A stretch of DNA of 50,688 bases, from positions 1-50,688 of IMG/VR virus record IMGVR_UViG_3300044732_000890; one strand, 5' to 3'. Under the pieces are notes generated by a model, which saw only the letters and a list, made by a program, of their open reading frames with translations, searched no databases and was not told the DNA's origin. This document shows positions 1 through 27,575 of the stretch, in pieces; position 1 is the stretch's first letter, and every line of letters starts with the position of its first letter. This DNA comes from a virus. Its lineage: Duplodnaviria > Caudoviricetes. Made by a program: the position numbers and the translations under genes.

Positions 1-1135
1 GCAAGGCAAGTATATCAGCGACTTGCTGCTTCAGTTCTTCGATCTCAACGGTCTGTGCGTCACACAGCACCTGGAGTTCATAAATCTTGCCTGTGTGAGC
101 CTTGGCTGTCTCGGCGAGGGCACCGCGGACACCCTTCAGCTGCTTTTCAACATCGCGCTCGGTGACAGGCTTCGGCACCTGCAGGCGATGATTGGCGCCA
201 TCGAACAGGAAGGTCGAACCGTCCTTGTGATAGATGTCGCCCGGCTCATAGCTGCGGCTCTCATCAAAGCCACCGACATCTCGCTGGCCGGCAGTTCCGA
301 GGCGCTTCCAGTGCGGGCTATCGCCGGGTTCTTCCGTGGTGTCGCAGACGGCCTGATATGAACGGCCGATGTAATGCTGAACGCACTTGCCTTCGCGATA
401 GATACCCGGCTCCCAGGGGGTGACATCTACGGTCTTCGTGACAATGGAGATAAACCACTCATCACGGGCCACATGCTTGGCTACCTCGGCCGCATCAGCA
501 TCCTTGCCGTCAACGCCGTCACGGCCATCGGTGCCCGGCGCACCCGGCTCGCCGGCCGGTCCTGTGATCTCTGAAATGTGGTTGGCAATGATTGCCTCGA
601 CCACCTCGGAGACATCAACAGACTTGCCGTCGACGCCGTCACGGCCGGGGGCGCCGGCATCGCCACTGTCGCCTTTCAGGGCAGCGCGGAATTCATCGTC
701 AGCCTTCAGCTGCGCGGCAATGGCATTATGGTCGGCATCCTTGCCGTCCACGCCATCGCGGCCGTCTTTGCCGTCAACCCCATCCCTGCCCGGCTCACCC
801 TTCAGGCTGGCCCGGAAAGCCTCGTCGCCCTTCAGGGAGCCAGCCACGACCTCGGGATCGACATCCTTGCCGTCAACGCCGTCGCGGCCATCGGCGCCAT
901 CCTTGCCGTCACGGCCCGGCTCGCCCTTCAGGCTGGACCGGAACGCCTCATCACCCTTCAGATGCGCGGCAATGGCGTCATGATCGGCATCCTTGCCGTC
1001 CACGCCATCGCGGCCGTCCTTGCCGTCAGCACCCGAGAGGCCGGGCGTCAGTGCAATGCCGTCAACCCGCTTCTCCAGGTTCACCAGCTGTTCGATCACC
1101 GGATCGAGTATCTCGACGAGTTTCTTCTCGATCAT
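1..1135 (-). CDS. Collagen-like (Gly-X-Y repeat) virion protein, partial (runs off window start)
   Basis: Own translation. ATG at 1135 overlaps portal stop (ATGA) and the frame is open to position 1. Sequence MIEKKLVEILDPVIEQL... has repeated GKDGRDGVDGKDAD blocks separated by short helices, then WEPGIYREG and a C-terminal coiled coil. Not in the ORF track because it lacks a stop. Confidence 0.8.
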   Translation of the reverse strand, partial: MIEKKLVEILDPVIEQLVNLEKRVDGIALTPGLSGADGKDGRDGVDGKDADHDAIAAHLKGDEAFRSSLKGEPGRDGKDGADGRDGVDGKDVDPEVVAGSLKGDEAFRASLKGEPGRDGVDGKDGRDGVDGKDADHNAIAAQLKADDEFRAALKGDSGDAGAPGRDGVDGKSVDVSEVVEAIIANHISEITGPAGEPGAPGTDGRDGVDGKDADAAEVAKHVARDEWFISIVTKTVDVTPWEPGIYREGKCVQHYIGRSYQAVCDTTEEPGDSPHWKRLGTAGQRDVGGFDESRSYEPGDIYHKDGSTFLFDGANHRLQVPKPVTERDVEKQLKGVRGALAETAKAHTGKIYELQVLCDAQTVEIEELKQQVADILAL

Positions 1136-2526
1136 GCCGCGGCTCTCTTCTGCTGCATCCTGGTGAACAGCAGCGCCTTCATCACATCGACATCGATGTC
1201 TCGCTGTTCAGCAGGCGGGGCTTCGGCACTATCAGCACCCTGCGTGTCGGTAGATGCCGGGGGCGCGGCCAAACGCGCAGCCTCGGCGTCAAGGAGGTCA
1301 CCGATCTTGTCGATAGGTACCATCTGGCGCTGAAGGTATGCGGTGTTGCCGCCCTTCACCGGGGCGTAACCCTCACGGTTACGGGCTTCGTCAGGCGTCA
1401 GAAGACCGCCCTGGACAGCCTTTGTCAGGCCGTCGATGCGCCCGGCAAAGTCGGTACGCAGGAGGGCACTAACATCTAGTTCGATGTATTCATTACCACC
1501 CTTCAAACCGAACAGGCGATCAAATGCCCGCTCTGTATGCTCCAGGTATGAACCCAGCGACATCGACAGGAAGTGCTGAACTAGGATTTCAGCGTTGCTC
1601 AGAGTGGCGTGCGACAGATCGCCGACGAGCGGCGGCGGGACGCCGAACACCCGGCAGATGTCCTCGAGGCTCAACCGCTGGGCTTCGACCAGCTGCGCGT
1701 CCTGAGAGTTGATCGACAGCGGCTGGAACTTGAGGCCGCCAGCCAGCACAGGGATCTTGCCGGCAGACATGCCCTGCGCCTGCTCTTCGAAGGCAAGGCG
1801 AAGCGTCGTCATCTGCTCGCGGGTCAGCACCTGATCCGTGGAGATGATGCCGGAAGGCCGGTTCATGTTGCTGAAGAAGGTCGCCTGCGTCCTCGACAGG
1901 GACACGTTGATGCCGATGGCAAGCGCGGCAGCCTTGATGGGTGATTCCCCGACCAGAGGATGGCGCGGCGTGTGGAAGCGGAGGTGGAGGATGTCCCGCG
2001 CCGGCACGATGTAATCCGTCCCGCCGGGCGCCAGCGGGCTTTCGCCAACGGCATAGAACACCTCGCGGGTGTCCTCGTCGATGATGGGCGAGCAGACGCC
2101 ACGCGGCAGCAGATGCAGCGAGTCCACCTCGAAACGGTCGTTCCGGGTCGCAATCGCGAAAGCCTCGCCGTCGAACAGCGCGGTCGCGATCAGGTTCAGG
2201 ATGAAATCAGGCGAAGACTGATATGAATTCGGGTTCAGGAGAACGCGGTAGGCCCCACTGGTCCGAACCTCTTCGAAGCGGCCATTTACCACCCGGATAT
2301 GCTTCGGGTAGCACTGCGACATCGCACGGGCGATTGCCATCACACAGGCGTAGACGGCCGGGACATTTCGGGCGCCGCCACTCAGCGCCAGATCGCGCTG
2401 GAAGCCATCCTCGAGACGGCCAAGCGAATACCAGTTGCCAGAGGGAGCCGCGCCATAGAACGGGCCGCGCCAGGAGCCTTCAGCCCCCAGCCCGAGCCAA
2501 CTCTTGATCTTTGAAACGGCCCCCAT
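1132..2526 (-). CDS. HK97-family portal protein
   Basis: VPAVYACV, NPNSYQS, ILHLR, GESPI, ICRVFGVPPPLVG, LLTPDEAR motifs typical of HK97 portals. Confidence 0.95.
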   Translation of the reverse strand: MGAVSKIKSWLGLGAEGSWRGPFYGAAPSGNWYSLGRLEDGFQRDLALSGGARNVPAVYACVMAIARAMSQCYPKHIRVVNGRFEEVRTSGAYRVLLNPNSYQSSPDFILNLIATALFDGEAFAIATRNDRFEVDSLHLLPRGVCSPIIDEDTREVFYAVGESPLAPGGTDYIVPARDILHLRFHTPRHPLVGESPIKAAALAIGINVSLSRTQATFFSNMNRPSGIISTDQVLTREQMTTLRLAFEEQAQGMSAGKIPVLAGGLKFQPLSINSQDAQLVEAQRLSLEDICRVFGVPPPLVGDLSHATLSNAEILVQHFLSMSLGSYLEHTERAFDRLFGLKGGNEYIELDVSALLRTDFAGRIDGLTKAVQGGLLTPDEARNREGYAPVKGGNTAYLQRQMVPIDKIGDLLDAEAARLAAPPASTDTQGADSAEAPPAEQRDIDVDVMKALLFTRMQQKRAAA

Positions 2527-2532
2527 CAGGGG

Positions 2533-2814
2533 TTAACCCGCAGTATTCGTAGCTGCGGTGCGCTTCCGGGTCGTCATGACCTTGGTGTCATAGGTCCGAC
2601 CAACCAGCGGCTCCGCCGGATTGACGACGCCCGGATCAATCGGGGCCGCCTCGGCCTTCTGAATTTCCTTGAAGTACAAAGCGCCGACAGCCGTATCCTG
2701 CACGGCACCGGACTTGATCAGCTTCTGTGCCAGCACGTCATCACAAGCCACGAACCCAGTCTGGTTCTGCAGTTCGGGAAGCGGCTTGTAGGCCCATACC
2801 AGTGTCTCAGCCAT
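2533..2814 (-). CDS. Small hypothetical head-associated protein
   Basis: 93 aa ORF with AGGAGAG SD, between capsid and portal. Confidence 0.7.
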   Translation of the reverse strand: MAETLVWAYKPLPELQNQTGFVACDDVLAQKLIKSGAVQDTAVGALYFKEIQKAEAAPIDPGVVNPAEPLVGRTYDTKVMTTRKRTAATNTAG

Positions 2815-2834
2815 CGATCACTCTCCTGTAAGGC

Positions 2835-2859
2835 TGGCCGGGGCATAATACCCCGGCCA
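2835..2859 (-). terminator. GC-rich hairpin downstream of major capsid gene
   Basis: TGGCCGGGG / CCCCGGCCA 9-bp inverted repeat just after capsid stop; weak U-tract. Confidence 0.5.
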
Positions 2860-2873
2860 ACACATTTGCATAA

Positions 2874-4211
2874 TTACCAGGCGCAGCCGGTAATGGTCTG
2901 GACAGCACCGGCGCGGAGCAGTGCCCAGTCGAGTTCCCAAACCGTGCGAAGCGCAGCCGAGTTCGTCTGGTAGAGCGAGCGAACCGGAGCTGCAGCCACT
3001 CCAGCGCCATCAACGATAGGCAGCGGGGTGGTATCTTCTTCGTGGATGGACGCCACCTCAGTACCCATGAAGCGCGGAGCGCCGCCAGCGAACGCGAGTT
3101 CGGCAGCGTCGATCAGGAACACGATATCAGAAGGTACGTTGGTCGAGGTGACCACCGGAATACCCATGAGGGTGTTCTGATTGGAGTCAGGGAACGTCGG
3201 CGTACCGGCCGCCGTCACCGAAAGCTGCACACCCCAAGCGCGGGCCGGATTCATAACCCAGACCGGACGGCGACCCATATTCTGGGAAGCCAGCTGCTGC
3301 AGGCGACCACGAACGTCGGCCATGATATTGGCAGACGAGTTGCCGGTCGAGGCGGCAGTGTTAGAGCCAGTCGCAAAAGTCTGCATACCAGCCGGTGAGA
3401 TAGGCGAGCTGGGGATGTTCGACAGGAACATCTGGTCGAGCTTGGTCGCCGTGTCCGCGATCATGGCATCACGGATGATCTGCTCAATCGACGGGGTCGA
3501 ACGCTCGAGCAGTTCCATAGTGTAGGTGCCGATGACACCCATCGACTTCGGCGACAGGGTCGCGGAGGTCATGGAGATCGCACCAACGCGGATCGGCGCA
3601 CCCTCGGCGCGGAAAGCCGCAGCAAGGTTCGGATTGTCCAGAGCTGCACGCTGCGGGATCTTGATCGACGCAGCACCGTTGAACTCGTAGCGAGTCATCG
3701 GAATGCGCGGGATCACGGATTCGCCGCGGAGCAGGTCCATGAAGCCGGCGTAGGATTCACGCACCAGTTCCTGCGCCCAGCCCGGCACGTTCGTCATGGC
3801 GGGGTTCTGGGTAGCCTTGGTGACGATGCCGGCGACGGACTTGACGACTTCGTCGTCGCCGTAGCGGGCTTCGATAGCCATCTCGACCGGGATGCGCTTC
3901 ACATAGGCGTCGAAAGCGACGAGAGCGGACTTCACCAGGAGGTCAGCCTTCGCGCTGTCCTTGACGCGGGAAGCGGGGTTGGCGTTGATCGCGGGAGCCT
4001 TGACGGCGCGGGCGACGGACTTCTCAACGGCGGCTTCAGCGGCCTTGAGGCGGTCCAGTTCGGCAGTCGCCTTCTCGACGGCTTCGGTGGCGGCAACCAC
4101 GGCGTCCTGAGACTCCTGGGTGTCATCCATCTTGGCGGTGAGGTCGACGAGGACATCGCGGGCAGCGACGAGTTCCGCCTGCTTGGCGGTGATCTGCTCA
4201 GAGAGCTTCAT
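2874..4211 (-). CDS. HK97-fold major capsid protein with N-terminal coiled-coil (delta) domain
   Basis: Start reassigned to ATG 4211 (MKLSEQITAKQAEL). EGAPI, LSPKSMG, WVMNP, LMGIPVVTS and SLYQTNSAALR motifs; follows prohead protease. Confidence 0.93.
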   Translation of the reverse strand: MKLSEQITAKQAELVAARDVLVDLTAKMDDTQESQDAVVAATEAVEKATAELDRLKAAEAAVEKSVARAVKAPAINANPASRVKDSAKADLLVKSALVAFDAYVKRIPVEMAIEARYGDDEVVKSVAGIVTKATQNPAMTNVPGWAQELVRESYAGFMDLLRGESVIPRIPMTRYEFNGAASIKIPQRAALDNPNLAAAFRAEGAPIRVGAISMTSATLSPKSMGVIGTYTMELLERSTPSIEQIIRDAMIADTATKLDQMFLSNIPSSPISPAGMQTFATGSNTAASTGNSSANIMADVRGRLQQLASQNMGRRPVWVMNPARAWGVQLSVTAAGTPTFPDSNQNTLMGIPVVTSTNVPSDIVFLIDAAELAFAGGAPRFMGTEVASIHEEDTTPLPIVDGAGVAAAPVRSLYQTNSAALRTVWELDWALLRAGAVQTITGCAW

Positions 4212-4791: not shown

Positions 4792-4977
4792 CCGGCCGAA
4801 CCTTCATCGGTTGAGCCGGTTTTATGAACTTTACAGTTCCACCGTTGCGTTCAATTTTTCCGGGGCGAATGCGCGTCATACGTAAGCTCCGGCACGAGAA
4901 AACGGCGACGTATTATCAGCATAATACACACTGATAACATTCAAAGAAAATCTATTTAGAGCGTCGCCCATATTTTG

Positions 4978-5017
4978 CCCTTACGCCGGTTTGCCGCAAA
5001 AGTCAAGCGTTATTTTT
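4978..5017 (-). promoter_or_regulatory. Sigma70-type promoter of the phage repeat family, for protease/capsid operon
   Basis: Minus strand AAAAATAACGCTTGACTTTTG (TTGACT at 5006-5001), same as the early promoter family; -10 is weak (TAAGGG). Confidence 0.55.
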
Positions 5018-6635
5018 ACGCAATCCACCAGCTCAGGTCGTTACCTAAAGTTTCAGCCCGGCCATCGCTAACCGCGTAGGTAGCCATTATAGCGGCGATG
5101 AGTGGGTCGATGCGCTGAGTTGCTTTCGCCTTGCTAAGTTTTACGTCGCCGACATCATTTATGACCGCCACCGCATTGGCCGCCGCCATATTAAGTAGGG
5201 GATGGTTACCATGGCAAATGCGACCCTCAAGCATCAACGAAAGAAAGGCTTCAGCTCGCGGACTGAACTCCTTGAATCCCTGACCAATTGAATTCCAAAC
5301 CGCCAAGGAGCCGAAACCTTCTTCCTCGGCGACCCGCTTAAAGTCTTCAATACGCCACCTATCAAATTCCACCGTGGAGAGTGCAATACCTAGATCGTCA
5401 AGCCGAGTCTTTAGAGAATCTATAATCTGCGCGTAGTCCATGCTCTCGCCACCAACCGGAATCAACTGACCCTGCGTAATCCAAGCGGAGTATGGTGCCC
5501 GGTCACGACGACTGCGCTCTTCTACCCCATGTGTCGGGCAGAACACGAACGGAAGCAGATGGACGTTGCGAGTAACAGGATCCATGGCGGCAATCACGGC
5601 CGCCGTGAGGTCGTTGCGAGCCGAAAGGTCCAGCCCAATAGAAACCGGATTATTGCGAAACACCTCTAAGTCTGGCGGCGAACTGTTCTTGCGCCAAACC
5701 TGCGGAGATAAAAACAGATGCTCCTGCGCCACCCGCCGATTCAACAGCAGATTCTCGGCTCCGGCAGCCATGGCAGGTAAACGCTTAGCCTGCTCAAGCT
5801 GGTTGGCAAGATCAGACTTAGAGCGGAACACACCAAGACCGGGGTTAGCCATACGCATACCCTCAGCATCAAGTAGATCAAGTTCTTTAGGAGAGGTGTA
5901 AAGATGACAAACGGTATGAGGGTCTTGAGAACGCACCGCGTCGTCAATAAGTATAGATAGAAAGTCTGCATCAGATGCGGCCTGCGTGGAGATAGTAGCG
6001 AACAGGGCGTCAGAATACGAACCCTGAGAGGTGCGTAGCATCTCCGTATACTCGGTGGACGGACCCTTGATCTGTCCGCTTTCGTCCAACACGATGTATT
6101 TTAGCGAACGACCATGACCCGTCTTGGCTTCGGCACTCATCGCGTAGTAGGTCGTATTTAGGGCCAGACCCTTTATCTCTTTCGTGGAGGGTGTTACATG
6201 TAACACGTTCGCTACATCAGGCGACTGCAAAATCATCTGATGCATCATCTTGAAAACGAGCGAGGCCTGATCGCGGGAGTTAGCGGCCGAGGCGCAAGTG
6301 ATGTTCGGCTCGGCCAGCGGCCCACACAGCACGGCCAGTATAAGCACCGCCAGCAGGAAGGATTTACCGTTTCTGCGAGCGATACTCAGTATGGCTGTGC
6401 GGGTCCCTTTGGGGTTGTCTAGCACCGCCCGGAGCCAAGTCTCCTGAAATACATCCAGCCGGATAGGCTGACCCACGTGCTCACCATCCGGGATACGTAG
6501 GTGACGCTCTGCAAACAGAATTACCTTTTCTGCCCGCGTCAGCTTGTTTGGGTCGGTGATCTGGCGGAAGTTGCGCGGCTTGGGTGTCGGCCCGCAAACT
6601 ATCGCGCGCAGCACGTAATCTGGAAGAGCAGCCAT
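5016..6635 (-). CDS. terL: Terminase large subunit (HK97-like, Terminase_1)
   Basis: Walker A IARRNGKS, Walker B IVLDE, coupling motif ISTQ, nuclease GLDLS...D and RIDPLIA. Confidence 0.95.
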   Translation of the reverse strand: MAALPDYVLRAIVCGPTPKPRNFRQITDPNKLTRAEKVILFAERHLRIPDGEHVGQPIRLDVFQETWLRAVLDNPKGTRTAILSIARRNGKSFLLAVLILAVLCGPLAEPNITCASAANSRDQASLVFKMMHQMILQSPDVANVLHVTPSTKEIKGLALNTTYYAMSAEAKTGHGRSLKYIVLDESGQIKGPSTEYTEMLRTSQGSYSDALFATISTQAASDADFLSILIDDAVRSQDPHTVCHLYTSPKELDLLDAEGMRMANPGLGVFRSKSDLANQLEQAKRLPAMAAGAENLLLNRRVAQEHLFLSPQVWRKNSSPPDLEVFRNNPVSIGLDLSARNDLTAAVIAAMDPVTRNVHLLPFVFCPTHGVEERSRRDRAPYSAWITQGQLIPVGGESMDYAQIIDSLKTRLDDLGIALSTVEFDRWRIEDFKRVAEEEGFGSLAVWNSIGQGFKEFSPRAEAFLSLMLEGRICHGNHPLLNMAAANAVAVINDVGDVKLSKAKATQRIDPLIAAIMATYAVSDGRAETLGNDLSWWIA

Positions 6636-7119: not shown

Positions 7120-7150
7120 TATGCGGTTCTCCAAGTTTGGTTATATTATA

Positions 7151-7180
7151 TATTTAGGGTGATTCGTTGAGGAAGTCAAG
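7151..7180 (-). promoter_or_regulatory. Sigma70-type promoter for terminase genes
   Basis: Minus strand CTTGACT-N17-TAAATA (-35 at 7179-7174, -10 at 7156-7151). Confidence 0.65.
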
Positions 7181-7285
7181 GGGGTAAAGTCGAAGTTTAT
7201 TGTTAAGCCACCTAAAATGGGGTCCGAATTCTAGTAAGCACAGTCAAACAAATGGCAACAACGCGGTTGGGATCAAAAGCCGGTA

Positions 7286-8054: not shown

Positions 8055-8263
8055 ACGGCGGCCTTTGGGTAAAGCTCAACGACCTTCACACCCCGTTTGA
8101 TGTGCTCTGAGCATCTACGATTTGGGGATCCGAACAACGGCATGCTGAAATCAAACTTCTTACCACACCCTGCGCAGTGTGACCTCAATCTGATCGAGAT
8201 CCCATCTGCGTCCTCAACTCCCAAGAACTCGTAACCCTGACCTTTGAACTGAAGCTCACTCAT
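8051..8263 (-). CDS. Small putative Zn-binding protein
   Basis: CAGCGKKF...RRCSEH; GGAGAT SD; stop overlaps next start. Confidence 0.6.
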   Translation of the reverse strand: MSELQFKGQGYEFLGVEDADGISIRLRSHCAGCGKKFDFSMPLFGSPNRRCSEHIKRGVKVVELYPKAAV

Positions 8264-8270
8264 GACATCT

Positions 8271-8462
8271 CCGGGGTCTCAATAGCTTTCAAGTCAACCT
8301 CCAAAAACCACCAACTTACCATCATCAGAAATCACCGTTTAATTGAGACCCTGTCCTTACAGGAGAGACACCGGGGTCCTGATTGGTATGGGCACTGGTG
8401 TGACCCATACCCAAACCATTCAGGACTTGCGCCGGGGTCCCAAAGGGTCTCAATAGGGGTCC
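8271..8462. repeat. Cluster of GGGGTC(C/T) iteron-like repeats; candidate replication origin
   Basis: GGGTCTCAATAG at 8274-8285 and 8445-8456, inverted ATTGAGACCC at 8342-8351, CCGGGGTC at 8271, 8371 and 8432, GGGGTCC at 8456. Confidence 0.55.
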
Positions 8463-10618
8463 TAATTGCCTCCCATCTCAAAATTCTGCGCCCGAACAGC
8501 CACGATGCAACCCGGCACATCTATGTCTCCATTCACCTCAAACAGGCGACCAATCACACCCTTGAACCACTCCTTAACTTCTGACTTACCGCTGGTAATG
8601 CGAGCCATGGATCTCAGCTGCTCCATATTCACCTTCTTCAGTTTCTCATAACCTTCAATCGGACCTTCAGGCTGACGACCCGACTGAATGCGCACTACCA
8701 AGCCTTCAAAGCCTTCAGCCCGCGTATCGTTTGCAGCCTCTTGCAAGGCATTCAACACCGCAGCCTCTCGAGCCTCTAGCGCACGTTCAGCAACAGCCTC
8801 TCGAGCCGCCTCTACGAACTCTATACCCTCACTCTCAGCCACAAGGCGGATCTTGACGGTATCCACGTAAGAAGTCTCAAGTCCACCAACAGCACCGATT
8901 ACATGATGTTGCGTTTCAAACGTCTGCCGCTCGGCGATGATCCAGTCATAGCGAGCTGAGTAACGCCGCTTCTGAAAGCGCAGGAAGCGATAGTCCCGCA
9001 AACCGTCAGCAACCTCACGACCAATGGCTGCGGTTCCTTCAACGTCACCTTTCCAAGCAGAAGCGCCGCGAGCATCGAGGTCAAACACCGACACATCACG
9101 ACCAGCTTTAGCCGTGTGCGCAATCAGCCACACCGGGTAGCCTCTCAGCACCCGACGTACGTTGGCGATCAGTCTTGATACCTCGGAGTTGTCGTTCTCG
9201 CTTTCGATTTCAAAGTTGGCTGAAGTAGTATCAAACACGATGAGTGGTCGGGCATCATATGCACCGCCCTCTACCTCATTGCTGAACTCCGTATCCTTCA
9301 ACAAAACCGGCAGAGCCTTATCCCAGAACTCAGGTCCTGCACGCCGGGAGTAGTAGACCTTAATCATGTCCCGGACTACAGCCTGATCCGGCTCAAGCAA
9401 GCCGTTTTCCCGCATAACTTTCAGAATATCCGTTATCTGTTCGGGAGCTTCGGCAAACCATAAAACACGCCGCTTGATATGTGTTTTTAGCGTTTCATCC
9501 GGGTTGATCATCAACCCACTCACCACCGTGGCGAGAGACGCTAAAATGGTTGATTTGCCGCCACCGGGTTGACCCGCAAAGGCAAACGTGCCGGTGCGTA
9601 TGAAATCGTTAATTACGTACTCTTTGGGCTGGTTTTCTACTTCATCGCTGACGTTGAATTGGCGCGGCAATTCGACATCTTCATCAGGATCCTTAACGTC
9701 AACAAACCCGTTTTCCTTAGCCCGGAAAATAACCGTTCCCATCTTCTGTGAATGTGGTTTGAGAGCTCGCCATGTGCCCTCTTGATCAACCGGGTCGTAC
9801 TTGTCAGACCGCTTGGAAAACTCATCCCAGAGCTCCCGTCCGGCATCGCCGTACCACCGCAGACCCTGACCGACCATAATCCACTCAGCACGGTCGTTGT
9901 GGTCAATTTTCTTCAGCACCTTGCGGAAATACTCACGCTCTTTGTCTACCAAGATATCTTGATAGTCGTCGTCAAACGAAACGTCTACCTTACGGCTATT
10001 TCTGTCAGGTCCGACGAGACGGTCAAAGGTGTCCGACACCTCGGTAAAGTACTCAGCCGTACCAATACGCTCGCCGGTTATGCAAACGTATCTGTTGGTG
10101 TTGAGAAACAGCTCTATTTCGCCGTCACCTCGCTTGAATTTACCGGAAAAAGTTTCACGCCCCTTTACGAAGCCGAAAATCTTAATTCCGGTACGGCTTG
10201 GCGACACTTCCGCGTATGAGCCGCACTCGTCAACGATTTCTTGCGCCCAGTCAGCGACAACCCCGTTTTCATCGACACACTTGTCGAGGTCAATTACGGC
10301 CAGCCACTGTAGCCCTGAAAGCATCAGCCCGAGACCGCGAGCACCGGGTTGAGCCTGAACCCTGACCCGTACCTGTTCTAACGTGTCCCACGTGCTGGGA
10401 TCATCTGAATGCGCCCATTCCTCGCTGAACGCACGCATGGGTGGTTTGGTCCAATGACCTTTGTTTGAAAGCATCCACGCCCAAGAGCACCACCTCTTTT
10501 CATCCTTGTACCGCTCAAATGCGACAGGGAAGTTGAATGCGGGGACAACCGGGCGGATGTCTTTTGCATCCTTGTCAACACGACGCCGGGCCTCATCAAA
10601 ATGGATAATCTCAGCCAT
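8462..10618 (-). CDS. Primase-polymerase (NrS-1-like AEP) / PriCT-2 / AAA_25 helicase fusion
   Basis: KPP..DPSTW, IDLDKC, YAEVSPSRTGIKIF, RYVCITG; PriCT-2-like DRAEWIMVGQGL...WDEFS; Walker A GQPGGGKS, Walker B IVFDT, IAHTAK, ARGASAW. Confidence 0.9.
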   Translation of the reverse strand: MAEIIHFDEARRRVDKDAKDIRPVVPAFNFPVAFERYKDEKRWCSWAWMLSNKGHWTKPPMRAFSEEWAHSDDPSTWDTLEQVRVRVQAQPGARGLGLMLSGLQWLAVIDLDKCVDENGVVADWAQEIVDECGSYAEVSPSRTGIKIFGFVKGRETFSGKFKRGDGEIELFLNTNRYVCITGERIGTAEYFTEVSDTFDRLVGPDRNSRKVDVSFDDDYQDILVDKEREYFRKVLKKIDHNDRAEWIMVGQGLRWYGDAGRELWDEFSKRSDKYDPVDQEGTWRALKPHSQKMGTVIFRAKENGFVDVKDPDEDVELPRQFNVSDEVENQPKEYVINDFIRTGTFAFAGQPGGGKSTILASLATVVSGLMINPDETLKTHIKRRVLWFAEAPEQITDILKVMRENGLLEPDQAVVRDMIKVYYSRRAGPEFWDKALPVLLKDTEFSNEVEGGAYDARPLIVFDTTSANFEIESENDNSEVSRLIANVRRVLRGYPVWLIAHTAKAGRDVSVFDLDARGASAWKGDVEGTAAIGREVADGLRDYRFLRFQKRRYSARYDWIIAERQTFETQHHVIGAVGGLETSYVDTVKIRLVAESEGIEFVEAAREAVAERALEAREAAVLNALQEAANDTRAEGFEGLVVRIQSGRQPEGPIEGYEKLKKVNMEQLRSMARITSGKSEVKEWFKGVIGRLFEVNGDIDVPGCIVAVRAQNFEMGGN

Positions 10619-10704
10619 CAAACGTACGCTCCGCTCTTACCGAAACGTATCGGTTTTACCGCTTGACTTCCGGCGTTGCTGCCGCTAAAGTTATACCCGG
10701 TCAT
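10618..10704 (-). CDS. 28-aa leader peptide translationally coupled to primase gene
   Basis: AAAGGAG SD, then MTGYNFSGSNAGSQAVKPIRFGKSGAYV*; its TGA overlaps primase ATG (TGATG). Confidence 0.5.
   Translation of the reverse strand: MTGYNFSGSNAGSQAVKPIRFGKSGAYV
10662..10691 (+). promoter_or_regulatory. Sigma70-type promoter lying inside the leader ORF, antisense to primase mRNA
   Basis: CTTGACT (10662-10668)-N17-TAAAGT (10686-10691), same family as other phage promoters. Confidence 0.6.
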
Positions 10705-10802
10705 TAAAGTCTCCTTTGGGTTGGCTTTCAAAGTGTCTTTGGTGTCCTTCGCAGCTAACTATGACCCAGCAATCCCTCCCGGTTCGCTGGGTCTTTTCTT
10801 TT
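10698..10802 (+). ncRNA. Candidate ~105-nt counter-transcribed small RNA ending in an intrinsic terminator
   Basis: Promoter upstream and no plausible ORF. Terminator GACCCAGC/GCTGGGTC (10763-10793) followed by TTTTCTTTT. Contains anti-SD CTCCTT. Confidence 0.5.
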
Positions 10803-10840
10803 GATGTGGCTGTTTTCAAAGTAGATTTTCCTTTATAAGC

Positions 10841-10849
10841 TTATCCACA
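10841..10849 (+). promoter_or_regulatory. Perfect DnaA box (TTATCCACA)
   Basis: Exact consensus in the divergent control region; single copy. Confidence 0.35.
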
Positions 10850-10975
10850 CCTACGGCGCGGAACCCGCTACTTTGCCTCGGTTCAACCAAAAAGGCAACC
10901 CCCAAGGGTAAATTATTTTTCTGCAGAGGGAACCTTTTACCACCTCGGGCGTTGTAAATTGTTTTGTGCCCGCTA

Positions 10976-11035
10976 AAAATAATTTTACGCCACCCAAAAA
11001 TAAAGCTTGACTTCTGTTTCTAGCTGCCCTATATT
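10976..11035 (+). promoter_or_regulatory. Early promoter P1 (A-tract UP element, TTGACT-N17-TATATT)
   Basis: -35 11007-11012, -10 11030-11035; near-identical ~63-bp copy at 13417-13480. Confidence 0.85.
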
Positions 11036-11082
11036 ACAAGTTACGGTGATCACAACGACACCGCTGATAACGGAGAACCACG

Positions 11083-11358
11083 ATGACCAACACCACCTTC
11101 ACCGCCAACGAAATCGCCGCCCTTAAAGTTATCTTCGCCGATTGCCTTGACGGTATGGGCGGCAGTTCCTGGGAGGATCTTGAGAACGACCCCTACACTT
11201 GGTGCGACGCCAAGACTCTCGTTGCCAACGGATGGTCCAAGCCCGAGGCCGCTGGCACTTTTTCCGCTCTCGCTGCTAAGGGTGCTATCGATGAGGTTGA
11301 GAAGAATGAGTGGGCCTTGAATCTCACTCCGGCAGTTCGCGCTGCAGTCAACGTCTAA
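11083..11358 (+). CDS. Early hypothetical protein
   Basis: First ORF behind P1 with TAACGGAGA SD; followed by GGGGAGC/GCTCCCC hairpin. Confidence 0.8.
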   Translation: MTNTTFTANEIAALKVIFADCLDGMGGSSWEDLENDPYTWCDAKTLVANGWSKPEAAGTFSALAAKGAIDEVEKNEWALNLTPAVRAAVNV

Positions 11359-11399
11359 CCGGGGAGCCCAAGCTCCCCATTTTCAAAGAGGATATCCTT

Positions 11400-11678
11400 A
11401 TGACCGTCAAAGACCGCATCAGCCCGGCCAACATGATTATCGCCGAATTTCTTGACGTAGACATCAACGAAGTCACTGAAATGGTATACCAGCCGACCAT
11501 CTACCGCACCCCTCGCGTCTATTCGTGGGACGATGCGCCGTGGTCATACTTCTGCTGCCCACGCCCCGGCCAGAAGCCACCCAAGGGTTTTCAGTGGGAA
11601 ATTGCCGGCTACTCATGGCGCGAGGCTAACAAGAACCGCCCCGTCTACGGGGTTCGTTACGAAAGCATGAAAGGATAA
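11400..11678 (+). CDS. Early hypothetical protein
   Basis: ATG 11400 behind AGAGGA SD (MTVKDRISPAN...). Confidence 0.75.
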   Translation: MTVKDRISPANMIIAEFLDVDINEVTEMVYQPTIYRTPRVYSWDDAPWSYFCCPRPGQKPPKGFQWEIAGYSWREANKNRPVYGVRYESMKG

Positions 11679-11897: not shown

Positions 11898-12046
11898 CCT
11901 CGGGTATGTCAACCTCGAGGTGGCCCCAGCCAGCAGGTGGGCCTAACAACAGCTGGCCGCAAAGTAGCGTGGGACGCGTCCTCCCCCACGTTATTAGCAG
12001 GGCCGACCGGATGTGTTTCCCTTTTCACATCCGGTCGATCACCCTG
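11898..12046 (+). ncRNA. Candidate structured non-coding RNA (four consecutive hairpins)
   Basis: Stems CCTCGGG/CTCGAGG, CCAGC/GCTGG, TAGCGTGGG/CCCACGTTA and a perfect 12-bp CGACCGGATGTG/CACATCCGGTCG; last two loops pyrimidine-rich; strand inferred from context. Confidence 0.45.
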
Positions 12047-12051
12047 ATAAA

Positions 12052-12108
12052 TTATTTTTAGCTGGCCCAAAAATAACACTTGACTTTTGTTTCTAGGTTC
12101 CCTATATT
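12052..12108 (+). promoter_or_regulatory. Early promoter P2
   Basis: TTATTTTT..AAAAATAA, TTGACT 12080-12085, TATATT 12103-12108. Confidence 0.85.
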
Positions 12109-12155
12109 GAGGTTACTGAGGCGATGAGGCCTCGGCTGATAACGGAGAAACGACC

Positions 12156-12353: not shown

Positions 12354-12376
12354 CCCCTCCCAGAAAGGAGACTCTT

Positions 12377-12646
12377 ATGACCCGTAACGTTATCCCCCTC
12401 CGCGTCAACCCCTTCAAGGTCTCGTATGTTAACGAGCCGGCAAAGTCGGGTATGATCGCCGACACCAAGCGTGTTTTCGGTCCGGATGGGGAAGACAGCC
12501 GCTATGCTGTGGCTCCGGTTCACAGCCGTATCGGACAAGATGTTGTCTGGTTTGTCTGGGACGCTGAGCAGCAGGATGAGCTCGGCTTTGCCAAGGTGAT
12601 CCGTCAGGAGGACAGCTTTGAGGCTGCCGTGGCGGGTCTCATCTGA
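12377..12646 (+). CDS. Early hypothetical protein
   Basis: ATG 12377 behind AAAGGAG SD (MTRNVIPLRVNPF...). Confidence 0.75.
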   Translation: MTRNVIPLRVNPFKVSYVNEPAKSGMIADTKRVFGPDGEDSRYAVAPVHSRIGQDVVWFVWDAEQQDELGFAKVIRQEDSFEAAVAGLI

Positions 12647-12656
12647 CACACCGGCT

Positions 12657-12723
12657 GGGTCAGTCAAAATAATTTGGCTGACCCAAAATAAGTGTTGACT
12701 TCTGTTTCTAGCTAGCCTATATT
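12657..12723 (+). promoter_or_regulatory. Early promoter P3 with upstream palindrome
   Basis: GGGTCAGTCAAA-ATAA-TTTGGCTGACCC inverted repeat; TTGACT 12695-12700, TATATT 12718-12723. Confidence 0.85.
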
Positions 12724-12772
12724 TCATCTTACGGTACACGACACCGCGGATAACTGATAACGGAGACACGAT

Positions 12773-13246
12773 ATGGCCCGCATTAATGACATCTACCGCA
12801 CCCGCACCAGCTACTTTGACAAACTGATGGAAGATGCTTGGAGCGTCGGTGAAACCAACGACTGCGCTGTCAAGGCGATTTGTGTGGTCACCGGAGCCGA
12901 GTACGCCGACGCGCACACTCGTTTAGCTGCACGCGGTCGCAAGAAAGGCCACGGCACTTACATGTTCGACACCCACGCCGTGATCCGCGACCTCGGTTTT
13001 AAACTGGAGCGTATGTCCCCCGGCGAGTTTCAGAAGAAGTATCCCCGCTCCAAGACCGGCGGTTACGTTTATAAGCAGCTGACCACCCATCACGTAGACC
13101 TCTACCCGGAGGCTTGGAATGACGGTCACGCCTACCTTATCCACACCTCGGGTCATGTGGCCGGTGCTCTGTGCGGTAAGCTTCACGATTGGACTCGCGG
13201 TCGTGCCAAGCGTATTGAATGTTTCTATCGCGTAACTAAAGTATAA
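12773..13246 (+). CDS. Early hypothetical protein, possible papain-like (C39-like) fold
   Basis: NDCAVKAI...GHVAG...HDW pattern suggests a Cys-His-Asp triad (inference). Confidence 0.7.
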   Translation: MARINDIYRTRTSYFDKLMEDAWSVGETNDCAVKAICVVTGAEYADAHTRLAARGRKKGHGTYMFDTHAVIRDLGFKLERMSPGEFQKKYPRSKTGGYVYKQLTTHHVDLYPEAWNDGHAYLIHTSGHVAGALCGKLHDWTRGRAKRIECFYRVTKV

Positions 13247-13259
13247 AGGAGCCACTATT

Positions 13260-13418
13260 ATGAACTTCTTTGTCGCGTCATTTCACAACCCTAATTTTAT
13301 CATATCGTCAGCGTATCAGACGTTTTCCGAGGCCATGCACGCTGCCGAATGCATCAGGGTGTTTACCGGGGAACCTTGTCGGGTGATCCGCGTTGCATAT
13401 CTTTGGGTGACCCCGTAA
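13260..13418 (+). CDS. 52-aa hypothetical protein
   Basis: Own translation MNFFVASFHNPNFIISSAYQTF...; AAAGGAG SD. Confidence 0.55.
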   Translation: MNFFVASFHNPNFIISSAYQTFSEAMHAAECIRVFTGEPCRVIRVAYLWVTP

Positions 13419-13476
13419 AATAATTTTACGCCACCCAAAAATAAAGCTTGACTTTCGTTTCTAGCTGCCCTATATT
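13417..13476 (+). promoter_or_regulatory. Early promoter P4 (near-duplicate of P1)
   Basis: TTGACT 13448-13453, TATATT 13471-13476. Confidence 0.85.
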
Positions 13477-15303: not shown

Positions 15304-16241
15304 TGGCTCTCCCTACCCCAGCAGACCTCGACCGCCTCGCCGCCAAGCTCACGCCTTGGGAAAACCCGCAGGGTTTTTGGTTCAAGCGAGAAGACAAGTT
15401 TGCCCCGCTCGGTTACGGTGGCCCGAATGGATCAAAATTACGTCAGCTAATTCACCTCTTTGCCCGGCACAAGGGTAACGCTACGCATGTGGTGACTGGT
15501 GCGAGCATTCAGTCTCCGCAGCATAGCATGACCGCGTTCCTCGCTGCCGTGCACGGTCTCCCCTCCCTGCATGTCGTCGGTGCCACGACGCCAGAAACCA
15601 TTATGCGTCACCCCAACCCGCTCATCGCCGCCGGGTTCGGAGCCGCGTTTGACTATATCAAAGTTGGCTACAACCCGGCTTTGCAGAAGCGTGTGGCAGA
15701 GCTCAAACGGGAGATGGACGCAGCCTTCGAGGTGCCGTATGGTATCACGCTCGCTACCGACCTCTCCAGCCCTGAAGACCTCACAGCCTTTCACAGCGTT
15801 GGAGCGGCGCAAGTGGCGAACATCCCGGAGGAGGTGACCACGCTTATCGTACCGGCGGGAAGCTGCAACTCGCTAACCTCTGTCCTGCTTGGCCTCACAA
15901 CGCACAGCAACAACGTGCAGAAGGTCGTCAGCATCGGCATCGGTCCCTCCAAGATCGGCTGGGTGCGTGACCGGCTGCGCAAAATGAACGTGGACCCCGA
16001 CCGGCTCGCGTTTGAATGGAACCACAACATCTCCCTGCACGACAGCGATTATGCCAAGTACGGGGACCGTATGCCCGAGACGTTCGCCGGTATCAACTTC
16101 CATCCTACGTATGAGGGGAAGATGGTGCGGTGGATGAAGGAGCACGATATCTTCCGCGCCAACGCAGACTGTGGCTACGGCTTCTGGATCGTTGGCTCTG
16201 ATAGCAACCCAGAGGTATGTCGTCCTTTCTTTACGAATTAA
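15303..16241 (+). CDS. PLP-dependent fold-type II enzyme; likely amino-acid-thymidine decarboxylase of DNA hypermodification
   Basis: WFKRED...GGPNGSKLRQ (PLP lysine), VPAGSCNS, HPTYEGK; context with AADT and 5hmU kinase as in phages ViI and M6. Confidence 0.85.
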   Translation: MALPTPADLDRLAAKLTPWENPQGFWFKREDKFAPLGYGGPNGSKLRQLIHLFARHKGNATHVVTGASIQSPQHSMTAFLAAVHGLPSLHVVGATTPETIMRHPNPLIAAGFGAAFDYIKVGYNPALQKRVAELKREMDAAFEVPYGITLATDLSSPEDLTAFHSVGAAQVANIPEEVTTLIVPAGSCNSLTSVLLGLTTHSNNVQKVVSIGIGPSKIGWVRDRLRKMNVDPDRLAFEWNHNISLHDSDYAKYGDRMPETFAGINFHPTYEGKMVRWMKEHDIFRANADCGYGFWIVGSDSNPEVCRPFFTN

Positions 16242-16254
16242 ATTCGCACTGCCT

Positions 16255-16294
16255 AAAAATAACGCTTGACTTCCTCCCCCGGTGCGCCTAAATA
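16255..16294 (+). promoter_or_regulatory. Promoter P5 inside modification cluster
   Basis: AAAAATAACGCTTGACT (-35 16266-16271)-N17-TAAATA. Confidence 0.75.
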
Positions 16295-17458: not shown

Positions 17459-18460
17459 ATGACCATAGATTATCGCCCGCACCCAACCCGCGTCATGTAC
17501 TGCGAGGATCTCTACCGGGTCAACCTCGAGCATGGGATCATGCCGGGTCTCGTCTACCTCTACATGCCCGCTCTCAAACAGACCCTCAACTGGTCTGAGG
17601 AGCGTGCGCTGTGGTTCGCCTTCATCAACGGTATGACCCAGAACCCGCTCACCTCTCTGCTGATCCTTGAGCAGCTGCCGGATGTACCCGACCCCGGCGA
17701 CCCCATCACCACGTTTGACGAGTGGTTCAACCGTGAGTGGCCGCGCCTCTTCTTCGACACCGACCGGCTGAAGAACAAGCGCAACACGATATCTGCGATC
17801 AAGTCCTACGCCAAGCTCGTCGGCGAGTATGGCTCGCAGCAGCTTATGCTAGACAACCGTACCTATCCCGAGCTCTGGAACATCGTGTCCAACGGCTACT
17901 ACAGCTTCGGTCGCCTGTCCACGTTCTCGTATCTTGAGTACGTGCGGATCATGGGTCACGGATCCATTTGCGCCGACCTTATGGTCTCGGACAAAGGTGG
18001 CTCTAAATCCCACCGCAACGGTTTGCTGTTCCTGACTGGTCTTGACCATATGGTTAATGATCCCCGCGCTAAGAACGGGTTTGATGGCAACTATCAGGAC
18101 TACGACAAGATGTGCGGCTGGCTGACCGAACAGGCTAACGAGTTCCTGCGCCGGTTCACCGCTAAGCACACGTACCAGCATACCGGCTACTTTACATTTG
18201 AGTCGCAGCTATGTCAATTTAAAAATAATTTCTTTGGTCGACGTTATCCAGGATGCTACGCCGACATGGCGTTTGACCGGCTATTGAAACATGAAGACGC
18301 GTGGGGAAAGGACCGAGCGACGAAATTGATTTGGGATATCCGCACATCTCTTCCAGACTGGCTGCGTAACGAGGCTAAGAACGACAAACTGTCTATACCG
18401 GACCGGGCCAAGATCTTCCCGCGCACCGGCTTCCCGTACAGAGGAGAACATTTCCTGTGA
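17459..18460 (+). CDS. Amino-acid:DNA transferase (aGPT-Pplase2/AADT, HhH-glycosylase-like)
   Basis: ERALWFAFING, FDTDR, YYSFGRLSTFSYLEY, SHRNGL, FESQLCQFK, RRYPGCY. Confidence 0.85.
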   Translation: MTIDYRPHPTRVMYCEDLYRVNLEHGIMPGLVYLYMPALKQTLNWSEERALWFAFINGMTQNPLTSLLILEQLPDVPDPGDPITTFDEWFNREWPRLFFDTDRLKNKRNTISAIKSYAKLVGEYGSQQLMLDNRTYPELWNIVSNGYYSFGRLSTFSYLEYVRIMGHGSICADLMVSDKGGSKSHRNGLLFLTGLDHMVNDPRAKNGFDGNYQDYDKMCGWLTEQANEFLRRFTAKHTYQHTGYFTFESQLCQFKNNFFGRRYPGCYADMAFDRLLKHEDAWGKDRATKLIWDIRTSLPDWLRNEAKNDKLSIPDRAKIFPRTGFPYRGEHFL

Positions 18461-19990: not shown

Positions 19991-20947
19991 ATGCACTTCA
20001 TCTTCGAAAACTGCAACGACGCATGGCCGACGACGGTTCAGATGATACAAACATCTGGAGTTATCCGTAACAGTCGCAACGGTCGCGTTTCTGAATATCC
20101 GGATCCGGTTACGATAACATACGAGCGTCCGTATGAGCGGGTCTTGTTCTGCCCCTTGCGCAACATCAACCCCTTTTTGCACTTCTTTGAGCCACTTTGG
20201 ATTCTTGCCGGACGCCGGGATGTTGAGTTCCTTTCTAACATTGTTGGTCGTTTCCGCGACTATTCAGATGACGGTAAGGTATTCAACGCTGCCTATGGTC
20301 ACCGGCTTCGTTACCCTAACGATCAGATCGCCGAAGCTATTAAGCGTCTAAAGCGTAATCCGGACGATAGACAAGTCGTTCTTCAGATACGCAAGCCAGA
20401 CGACATTTACTACACGGGAAAGGACACCGCATGCAATTTGTCAATTGCGCTTAAGGTGCGTAATCGCTATTTGGACATTCACGTATTTAATCGCTCTAAC
20501 GACGTTGTTTGGGGCGGCCCTGCGGGAGGTGCAAATTACCCTCAGTTTACAACCATCCAGGAATATATTGCCGGTCACGTGGGTTGCGGTATTGGCCGGT
20601 ATCACCACACAACAGATAGTATGCACGCTTACATCGACAGCCCAGACTGGGACCGGGTAAAAGACGTTCAGGGTTATCACGACTTATACCTTTGGGACAA
20701 TGTTCCGCCATATCGTCTTTTTGATGGTTTGTTGTTCCCTGAACTGTTTGATCAAGATCTGCAGTTCTTCTTTAGCGAGCGGGCTACAACCGGATACGCC
20801 ACCTCTTACTTTAAGGATGTCGTTGGGCCGATGTGGGCCGCGTTTCAGGCGTATAAGCGTAGGGAGCAGGTAGATTTTTCCGCTATACGAGCCAGGGATT
20901 GGGCTTTTGCGGTTGAATCTTGGCTCGCGCGCAAAAATAAAGCTTGA
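19991..20947 (+). CDS. Thymidylate-synthase-family dUMP hydroxymethylase
   Basis: SRNG, NPFLHFFEPLWILAGR, YSDDG, AYGHR, DTACN (catalytic Cys), RSND, GANY (Asn = dUMP specificity), SMHAY; adjacent to 5hmU kinase. Confidence 0.88.
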   Translation: MHFIFENCNDAWPTTVQMIQTSGVIRNSRNGRVSEYPDPVTITYERPYERVLFCPLRNINPFLHFFEPLWILAGRRDVEFLSNIVGRFRDYSDDGKVFNAAYGHRLRYPNDQIAEAIKRLKRNPDDRQVVLQIRKPDDIYYTGKDTACNLSIALKVRNRYLDIHVFNRSNDVVWGGPAGGANYPQFTTIQEYIAGHVGCGIGRYHHTTDSMHAYIDSPDWDRVKDVQGYHDLYLWDNVPPYRLFDGLLFPELFDQDLQFFFSERATTGYATSYFKDVVGPMWAAFQAYKRREQVDFSAIRARDWAFAVESWLARKNKA

Positions 20948-20972
20948 CTTTCTTTTCTGGGCCGCCTATATT
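20933..20972 (+). promoter_or_regulatory. Promoter P7 overlapping the hydroxymethylase stop codon
   Basis: AAAAATAAAGCTTGACT (TGA within -35 is the stop), TATATT 20967-20972. Confidence 0.85.
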
Positions 20973-21018
20973 GGGGTTACTGAGCCGCTGATGGCTCGGC
21001 TGATAACGGAGAATTAAC

Positions 21019-21252
21019 ATGAAGACCGCCCTTCTTTCCCTCATCCTCTCGGCCCTCGCAGTTTGCGCGGCTGTTCCCCTGTTCCTGTTCAGCGCTGGTC
21101 TTGAGATGAACTCACCCGGTTCTGGCGTCGCCTTCGTTCAGGTTGCCACATGGGTTACCGTCGTACTCATCGCCCAGCCGGTTCTCGTCGTACCCTTTGT
21201 GACGATCCGTGCGCTCGTTGGTGCCGGTGCTCGCCTGATCAAGTCCAACTAA
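21019..21252 (+). CDS. Small membrane protein (2 TM)
   Basis: Two long hydrophobic stretches; TAACGGAGA SD. Confidence 0.75.
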   Translation: MKTALLSLILSALAVCAAVPLFLFSAGLEMNSPGSGVAFVQVATWVTVVLIAQPVLVVPFVTIRALVGAGARLIKSN

Positions 21253-25937: not shown

Positions 25938-25957
25938 GTGGGGGCTTCGGCCCCCAC
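25938..25957 (+). terminator. Hairpin/terminator after SSB
   Basis: GTGGGGGC-TTCG-GCCCCCAC. Confidence 0.7.
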
Positions 25958-25961
25958 CAAA

Positions 25962-26018
25962 TTATTTTTGGGCGACCTAAAAATAACGCTTGACTTTTGC
26001 GCCGGCAGGCCTCATATT
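25962..26018 (+). promoter_or_regulatory. Promoter P8
   Basis: TTATTTTTGGG-CGA-CCTAAAAATAA inverted repeat, TTGACT 25990-25995, CATATT 26013-26018. Confidence 0.8.
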
Positions 26019-26981: not shown

Positions 26982-27011
26982 GGGTTCACAACTGAATAAC
27001 GGAGAAACAAG

Positions 27012-27575
27012 ATGACTATCCGCACCGTCAAAGATGCTGACTCAATACATAAGCTCGTAGGTCTGTATGCCGCGCTTCAGTCAGCGCGAGTTTCGTCTGG
27101 ATACTTTGTAGAGGACCGGGTAGCTGATGTTTTATCTACGTTATACACCGGGACGTTAGTCAAGCGGTTCAAGATTAAATCTCCTAATTCAGATAGAAAA
27201 ACGAAACAGTTCGATGTAGCAATTCGTAACGGTAACTCTCTAGATGTGTTTGAAATTAAAACATACGCGGGAGATTCATTTACCTATTCTGAAGATACTG
27301 TGTTCAAGTCCATTTACACCGACTTGGAAGTTCTAAAATCCGCAAATCCCGGTGTTGATGTAAAGCTATACTATGTGTTTTCAGATATTGATAGTGAGTT
27401 TGCGATACGTATGAAGAAAGAAAAAGTTGTCGGTGTGATATCGTTTGCCGATATAGGTCTGAATGCAAACGAACTTATCATCGAAGGTATGATGCTAAAA
27501 TTCAATAAGAACCTCGCTGACCTGTCCATTTCTGATAATCTCAAGAAAGCTATAACTGATGAATTCTCAGCGTAA
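27012..27575 (+). CDS. PD-(D/E)XK restriction-endonuclease-like protein (AT-rich)
   Basis: GYFVE, FDVAI, VFEIKT spacing fits E...(P)D...ExK; overlaps MTase gene. Confidence 0.6.
   Translation: MTIRTVKDADSIHKLVGLYAALQSARVSSGYFVEDRVADVLSTLYTGTLVKRFKIKSPNSDRKTKQFDVAIRNGNSLDVFEIKTYAGDSFTYSEDTVFKSIYTDLEVLKSANPGVDVKLYYVFSDIDSEFAIRMKKEKVVGVISFADIGLNANELIIEGMMLKFNKNLADLSISDNLKKAITDEFSA

Follow-up and report, generated by a model that had tools for sequence, protein, structure and literature searches.

A predicted antisense RNA opposite a putative leader reading frame at the primase-helicase gene of an uncultured lake phage

It is textbook knowledge that an antisense RNA can control a plasmid replication initiator by way of a coupled leader peptide, and in plasmid R1 the antisense RNA CopA is about 90-100 nucleotides (nt) long, has a 6-nt loop and acts on an mRNA whose leader frame stops at the rep start. 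Here we describe a locus of similar plan predicted in an uncultured lake phage: a putative cis-antisense RNA that covers the start of a 28-codon leader open reading frame (ORF) in front of the primase-helicase gene. The window analysed is the complete IMG/VR virus record IMGVR_UViG_3300044732_000890, which is linear, 50,688 bp long and of an estimated completeness of 94%; all coordinates refer to it unless a relative is named.

In the account given by PMC5415839, CopA and its target CopT are cis-encoded, and the RNA inhibits translation in a way that involves translational coupling; for the coupling itself PMC5304414 cites Blomberg 1992. The portion of PMC5304414 dealing with the RepJ-type and RepA-PFP-type plasmids from Pseudomonas describes REx-C, a portable upstream stem-loop region that fronts non-homologous rep genes. 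The first of its stem-loops serves to terminate a putative antisense RNA and is flanked on the sense strand by an A-stretch, and a later stem-loop region contains the antisense promoter. The 123-nt leader-peptide gene repI is translationally coupled to rep, the repI product itself having been found irrelevant (PMC5304414). Phages have antisense RNAs as well: lambda OOP (directed against cII) and sar and sas of P22 are presented in PMC5415839 as short, terminator-ended RNAs that modulate a neighbouring gene. The countertranscribed RNA (ctRNA) of repABC plasmids makes the mRNA leader form an intrinsic terminator, which is transcriptional control and, as PMC3155836 outlines it, involves no leader peptide.

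In the phage, two divergent arms meet at about 10,730-11,080, and the leftward (minus-strand) arm opens with the primase-helicase gene. According to our proposal, a weak, conserved promoter (P_L) would drive this arm, producing an mRNA with a 5' untranslated region (UTR) of about 158 nt, followed by the leader ORF, the primase-helicase gene and the packaging and virion genes. The Shine-Dalgarno sequence (SD) and start of the primase gene would be locked in a sense-strand hairpin that has its other arm inside the leader ORF. Because this hairpin would lock the ribosome site and the start, primase would be made mainly when ribosomes translate the leader ORF and terminate on the primase start, i.e. 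by translational coupling. A promoter on the opposite strand inside the leader ORF (Pas) would give an untranslated RNA of about 100 nt with a 5' stem-loop, a spacer and an intrinsic terminator, perfectly complementary to the leader start codon, its SD and the UTR. Pairing, probably begun by a loop-loop contact, would block translation of the leader ORF and hence of primase, and the duplex may become accessible to RNase III. In all likelihood such control would set the dose or the timing of primase and of the leftward arm. We give the full mechanism, in which the RNA blocks a leader ORF that is needed to open the primase start, a probability of about 0.5. It is probable that the plus strand carries a real small RNA gene here; from the arrangement of the elements we infer that this RNA is produced, that ribosomes translate the ORF and that primase is under the control of one or the other.

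On the sense (minus) strand, the first-pass annotation had pointed to a strong SD and a 28-codon ORF whose TGA overlaps the primase ATG, and both are present. The SD AAAGGAG (10711..10717), a heptamer counted four times on the plus and two times on the minus strand of the window, is separated by a 6-nt spacer, as read from the sequence, from the ATG of the ORF (10618..10704; ATG 10704->10702, TGA 10620->10618), whose 28 sense codons specify MTGYNFSGSNAGSQAVKPIRFGKSGAYV. The leader ATG thus exists, one base away from the implied position 10705. The leader TGA has one A in common with the primase ATG (10618->10616) and is also overlapped by an in-frame TTG (10621->10619). This TTG aligns with the first residue of the two full-length relatives in the protein alignment, so that the primase start is ambiguous and the true one may be either TTG 10621 or ATG 10618 (gene 8462..10621 or 8462..10618, respectively, minus strand). 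The gene product contains PriCT_2 (1.2e-09) and AAA_25 (3.7e-13) domains and belongs to PHROG primase/helicase families. Its own GGAG, which had also been pointed out before, is found at 10632->10629, with spacings of 7 nt to the TTG and 10 nt to the ATG. This SD and both candidate starts are predicted to pair with leader-ORF codons in a hairpin at 10603..10671 of the minus strand. Its folding energy is -24.6 kcal/mol on the sense strand (z-score -3.45; 2/500 shuffles) vs -9.3 kcal/mol on the plus strand (z +0.39), and a strand difference as large occurs in 18 of 4218 genome windows. Burial of the primase SD and starts, as modelled here, is the prerequisite for leader-peptide coupling; the leader ORF would then have to be translated and its ribosomes would play the coupling role.

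The predicted RNA lies at 10698..10802 of the plus strand, is about 102-105 nt long and was assembled from promoter, stem-loop and terminator. It spans the leader start codon, the leader SD and about 85 nt of the sense 5' UTR, so the earlier statement that it covers the start codon and SD and ends in a clean intrinsic terminator agrees with the sequence. The 105-nt RNA folds at -34.7 kcal/mol vs -21.7 +/- 2.9 kcal/mol for shuffled sequences (z -4.5, 0/200). Its 5' stem-loop (10699..10747, plus strand) has the 6-nt loop UUGGCU and holds the anti-SD CUCCUUU in the stem. The intrinsic terminator (10763..10802, plus strand) begins about 70 nt past the promoter and consists of a G+C-rich stem of 12 pairs with one bulge (10763-10793; z -5.5) followed directly by the U-tract UUUUCUUUU (10794-10802). 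Among 14 loose candidates in 50.7 kb it is the cleanest compact hairpin with a T-run. On the sense strand an A-run precedes the hairpin and no U-run follows it, which makes the terminator one-directional. The RNA had been called ORF-less. Two plus-strand frames starting with TTG do run through this stretch (10676..10804, 42 amino acids (aa); 10716..10838, 40 aa), and neither has an SD by inspection. No Rfam family reaches its threshold for the predicted RNA in scans of 3 kb and of the 351-nt region.

Pas, reported earlier as TTGACT-17-TAAAGT on the plus strand inside the leader ORF, is there as a sequence (10663..10691; TTGACT 10663-10668, 17-nt spacer, TAAAGT 10686-10691). It matches the consensus at 9 of 12 positions, and the start expected from it, 10698-10699, is the first base of the stable 5' stem-loop. 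What is rare is its identity to the promoter signature of the phage itself. The exact 10-mer GCTTGACTTC occurs three times in the window, in Pas (10661) and at 11005 and 16264, the latter two in promoter modules. Each module comprises an A/T-rich upstream element, TTGACTTCTGTTTCTAGCTGCCCTATATT and a fixed 5' UTR that ends in CTGATAACGGAGA before the start codon; modules are repeated on the plus strand along the rightward arm (10975-11081, 12048-12153, 12663-12771, 13416-13476, ~16236-16273, ~20929-21023 and ~25954-26000). The 29-nt module core is found four times in the window at up to 3 mismatches vs 0 expected, and a contig of a sister phage (L006) has five module copies. All eight TTGACT-17 sites with an acceptable -10 element are on the plus strand; seven belong to the rightward arm and Pas is the sole one outside it. 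Pas and the modules also have in common the 17-nt spacing and a GCTGCC element in the spacer.

Some further observations concern promoters. Contigs in metagenome assemblies break or cross-link exactly at the promoter module of about 50-65 nt. A second antisense promoter-like site is located at 18183-18240 of the minus strand, within the plus-strand gene 17459..18460, where an A/T-rich upstream run is followed by TTGACA-17-TAAAGT and then AGCCGG. It resembles Pas and the -10 region of P_L and has no obvious terminator downstream; as its A/T run encodes a conserved peptide, the site may be due to chance. TTGACTT-type -35 elements with module-like upstream sequence stand on the minus strand at 7130-7200 (before the small terminase gene) and 4960-5030 (after the large terminase gene), and these may be internal promoters of the leftward arm.

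P_L is located at 10870..10898 of the minus strand (TTGCCT 10898->10893, 17-nt spacer, CAAAGT 10875->10870). At the head of the leftward arm, the window and two relatives, L002 (TTGCCT-17-CAAGGT, 3565-3593) and L012 (TTGCCT-17-CATACT, ~8070-8100, minus strand), have the invariant block TTGCCT-17-CA(A/T)(A/G/A)(G/C)T in common. P_L is weak in comparison with the sigma-70 consensus, and a consensus promoter scan called no minus-strand promoter, P_L included. Judged by the positions of P_L and the leader ATG, sense transcription would start near 10863 and the 5' UTR would occupy 10705..10863 of the minus strand. Since P_L lies upstream, this UTR would contain the whole complement of the predicted RNA, whose terminator stops about 60 nt short of P_L. 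The ends of the P_L block form an inverted repeat (TTGCC...GGCAA), because of which the block could double as a site that overlaps the promoter and is bound by a dimeric regulator. A motif CAAAGTAGC(G/T/C)(G/T)G was seen at 10864-10877 (minus), 11958-11971 (plus), 12807-12820 (minus) and 18183-18196 (minus). At 3 mismatches it is counted 8 times vs 4.98 expected, with 17 of 100 shuffles giving at least 8, which is not above chance, and it is probably not meaningful beyond P_L.

Relatives of the locus are few. The primase has 31 related proteins at E <=1e-10, four of them close, and two of the four are without their N-termini; P0003 is a full-length relative with 44% identity. The phage GenBank collection gave no match in a DNA search and 35 records in a protein search, none of which covered at least 80% of the query and all of which were below 60% identity. 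IMG/VR gave no relative with the single primase protein and two loci with a primase alignment, L002 and L003, the latter with only about 160 nt of upstream DNA. Two scans of GTDB genome contigs and two of JGI metagenome contigs gave no relative. A 17-mer of the promoter region returned four stretches, three of them unrelated by inspection, and a 21-mer promoter pattern returned five, the four new ones being without a primase homologue or without any blastn similarity. The P_L pattern led to the L002 contig only, a TerL query to a single fragment on the wrong side of the locus, and a neighbour-gene query to L012, which is of use for P_L alone.

L002 and L006 are one contig and represent the sister phage, in which the primase is 42% identical, both arms are syntenic and conserved genes have 67-73% nucleotide identity. 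The first-pass annotation had named conservation in related phages as a check, and in this phage it is partial. The best terminator (3642->3612; GGCCCGGCC...GGCCGGGCC followed by TTTTTT, -17.5 kcal/mol) is about 20 nt downstream of P_L, in the same place and the same antisense orientation as in the window, with an unrelated stem sequence. Promoter, ORF and folds differ. The slot of the 28-codon ORF is taken by an 88-aa ORF (3742-4008, plus strand) with a CPVC (CxxC) motif, which overlaps the primase ATG by 11 nt, falls into no Pfam family and is without a counterpart in the window. Inside this ORF there is a strong second hairpin (3840->3803; sense z -5.2), which on the antisense strand is followed by a T-run. 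An antisense promoter-like sequence, TTGACA-17-GATGAT, abuts the primase start, and an RNA made from it would be about 330 nt long (z -2.45). Sub-threshold small RNA (sRNA) models end at the sister terminator (3605-3690, minus strand; mmgR/suhB, 24.6 bits, E 0.0064; SorX, 21.7 bits); these matches probably reflect a generic sRNA 3' end only.

Several points weigh against the mechanism proposed above. The element is known in one genome and one partly concordant relative with upstream DNA. In that relative, the promoter-like site has no positional homology to Pas, has a poor -10 element and is about 330 nt from the terminator, a sliding fold scan finds no primase-start hairpin and no marked strand bias, and the 88-aa protein has no similarity to the 28-aa peptide (the best tblastn match, E = 3.7, is elsewhere in the window). 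In L012 P_L is present and the rest of the element absent, the arm starting with a ResIII-type helicase gene. Pas does not have the A-rich (A/T) upstream element of the true modules, and its -10 TAAAGT is suboptimal and weaker than theirs. The strand-bias values of the two hairpins are extreme and unusual, not unique, as 18-90 other windows equal them. Some independent initiation of primase is possible because the gene carries its own GGAG. None of the seven sequencing runs listed as containing the sequence is RNA, and the near-identical strains in four metagenome DNA runs have 0 variant letters in 10000-11500, which leaves the substitution pattern unreadable.

An alternative that we consider unlikely takes the plus-strand small RNA as real and does away with the gating of primase through the leader. 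The convergent promoter and terminator could be an insulator, or act by transcriptional interference, keeping antisense transcription out of the divergent promoter region, or the RNA could be a trans-acting sRNA with the gene at 12377 or host genes as targets. It is in favour of this alternative that the terminator and promoter evidence argues for transcription only and not for any target, and that the sub-threshold Rfam matches at antisense-strand terminators (RybB in the window, mmgR and SorX in the sister phage, all below gathering scores) are to models of trans-acting sRNAs. The possible trans target (12364..12382, plus strand) comprises a ribosome site and the start of a gene of 89 codons (ATG 12377). 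As had been noticed from the sequence alone, a segment of the RNA is exactly complementary to 12364-12373, the 10-mer AAAGGAGACT being present exactly twice in the window, there and at 10708-10717 of the minus strand (0.07 expected; 1 of 100 shuffles with at least 2). The leader site and 12364-12382 are identical at 17 of 19 bases, the seed duplex has -24.1 kcal/mol, and the best 40-nt window reaches -36.7 kcal/mol, about the 1st percentile of 12,662 windows. However, the idea of a trans target fares badly. The duplex scan does not single out 12364, which falls outside the 25 best duplexes; the complementary segment is buried in the 5' stem of the RNA itself; and the extended match is lost in the sister phage, where the homologue of the 12377 gene keeps AAAGGAG and not the spacer. 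The match is probably a shared optimal ribosome-site consensus, and 12364 is at most a weak secondary target. In addition, two RNAs made from this place would inevitably be perfectly complementary in cis over 100 nt, the leader SD and AUG included, and the sense-only hairpin at the primase start would have no role under this alternative.

It is also improbable, in our estimate, that there is no antisense RNA at all, that Pas is a chance or decayed promoter copy and that the hairpins act in the sense 5' UTR, through stability, processing or ribosome-site occlusion. Sites of Pas grade are not rare: there are 21 in 101 kb (both strands of the window), sites of the 9/12 type number 7 vs 3.0 +/- 1.7 expected in 5 kb, and a 9/12 match to the consensus is on its own not significant. 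In the ~150 nt that lie upstream of the terminator, chance would give about 0.03 Pas-grade sites. There is strong structure in the sense UTR itself (z -4.48 for a 271-nt stretch), the terminator stem is more stable on the sense strand (-21.8 vs -17.8 kcal/mol), and the sister phage has no convincing promoter at the equivalent place. Against this, the T-run after the hairpin is on the antisense strand only, in both phages, and to the left there is no plus-strand gene whose transcript such a terminator could end. On the plus strand the stability of the 5' stem-loop is higher by 10 kcal/mol (-16.9 kcal/mol, z -4.8, 0/500, vs -6.8 kcal/mol, z -2.0, 15/500, on the minus strand); this plus-strand specificity is due to four G-U pairs, and a strand difference as large is found in 90 of 4220 genome windows. 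Finally, a chance origin of Pas does not go well with the exact 10-mer that it shares with the promoters of the phage. It is very unlikely that the 28-codon ORF is just an ordinary small phage gene or a remnant of one (cf. the 88-aa gene) whose overlap with primase is gene packing: stop/start overlaps are common in phages, the sister phage has the CxxC ORF with its 11-nt overlap in the same slot, and the leader and the real gene at 12377 have ribosome sites of one type, but the 28-aa peptide is unlike the 88-aa protein, the promoter and the 5' arm of the primase-start hairpin take up much of the ORF sequence, and such a gene would weaken only the word 'leader', being compatible with coupling and antisense control.

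The content of the genome bears on what antisense blocking of the leader ORF would be for. After the primase, the leftward arm has HNH, small and large terminase, protease, major head and portal genes and runs across the record ends into tail genes. The rightward (plus-strand) arm has a DNA polymerase, thymidylate synthase, a Sak4-like protein and a helicase. Among the window proteins searched, many small ORFs being outside that search, there was no product of an integrase, repressor or partition gene; the phage therefore looks lytic. DNA near-identical to the window is present in lake-water metagenome runs. The G+C content is about 62% over the head and portal genes (window 1-4000) vs 49-56% over most of the genome, and it dips to 42% at 27001-28000. 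The first-pass annotation had spoken of a plasmid copy-control-like switch. This is the wrong frame, because the phage has its own replication genes and neither an integrase nor a partition gene was found among the proteins searched. Dosing or timing of the leftward arm, which combines primase and virion genes, is likely and fits better than copy control. As a tentative suggestion, which we hold to be possible and short of probable, a lytic, polymerase-encoding tailed phage has adopted a self-contained plasmid-type cassette, unrelated in sequence to CopA/tap and REx-C, at the head of the arm with primase and all virion genes, as an RNA brake or timer on priming, perhaps also on late genes, and the RNA may touch the near-identical ribosome site of the early gene at 12377. 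In the sister phage the slot holds the 88-aa gene together with the same antisense terminator, which would point to an exchange of such cassettes among phages, as happens among plasmids.

We regard this interpretation as plausible, and its support has grown since it was first put forward. In the literature searched, which left most subscription journals outside, we found no description of leader-peptide-coupled antisense control of a lytic-phage primase-helicase. If it is true, the portable RNA module of plasmids is at work in phages too, setting the dose or the timing of replication priming, and an uncultured lake phage would provide a compact, sequence-programmable repression cassette. If it is not true, the region still stands as a well-defined place of divergent control, in which the leftward promoter is weak and conserved and the rightward promoters form a stereotyped family.

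Regarding the known systems, the first-pass annotation had named R1 and repABC as examples of the same kind of architecture. The repABC ctRNA is like the predicted RNA in being an antisense RNA just upstream of a replication initiator gene with negative control. A hairpin followed by a U-tract, as in repABC-type attenuation, was not found on the sense strand between P_L and primase. The repABC system as given in PMC3155836 works by attenuation without a leader peptide and is not the same architecture, so only R1 is a good analogue of the two. The C4 RNA of P1 and the CI RNA of P4 are likewise RNAs of about 100 nt that end in a terminator ahead of a primase operon and mask a ribosome site. However, they are encoded on the operon's own strand and processed from its leader, whereas here promoter and terminator have the opposite orientation. 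A sense leader RNA of the C4/CI type was rejected on the strand and on the absence of an Rfam C4 match at E up to 10. The repA gene of N15 is said to be under antisense control; the literature yielded only the existence of a paper by Mardanov and Ravin from 2006 and RepA acting in cis.

With lambda OOP and P22 sar and sas, the predicted RNA shares its short, terminator-ended form and its position in a phage control region. In contrast, OOP pairs with the 3' end of cII and leads to RNase III-dependent decay, and none of the three is described as using a coupled leader peptide on a replication gene. REx-C, and ColE2 RNAI with it, is similar in its stem-loops, antisense terminator, later antisense promoter and coupled leader. 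The setting is a phage here and a plasmid there, and the REx-C antisense RNA is called only putative in the account of PMC5304414. The REx-C core of 175-194 nt is absent: blastn (word 11) of 10560-10910 against 72,556 plasmid records of PLSDB matched nothing at E up to 0.01, and a plasmid protein search gave distant primase-domain matches only.

The best functional match for the predicted elements is R1 CopA/tap/repA. R1 has, and the phage is predicted to have, a cis-antisense RNA of about 90-100 nt with its promoter within the leader of a replication-gene mRNA, and in the phage this putative promoter, Pas, is convergent with P_L. Both RNAs have a 5' stem-loop with a 6-nt loop (here UUGGCU, in a predicted fold) and a terminator stem-loop, and in both loci a short leader ORF stops at the start of the replication gene. 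In R1 the rep start stays occluded until ribosomes translate the leader, and the antisense RNA blocks leader translation; the same would apply to the phage. The differences are as clear. The controlled protein is a PriCT_2/AAA_25 primase-helicase and not IncFII RepA, the predicted RNA lies directly over the leader SD and AUG, a CopB-like repressor was not identified here, and no CopA-like Rfam match was obtained at E up to 10 with 3 kb or with the 351-nt region alone. Moreover, the replicon is apparently a lytic phage with its own DNA polymerase, and because of this the purpose cannot be a steady-state copy number. Judged by its sequence, the element in the window is a plausible CopA/tap-like analogue and not a member of the CopA or REx-C family.

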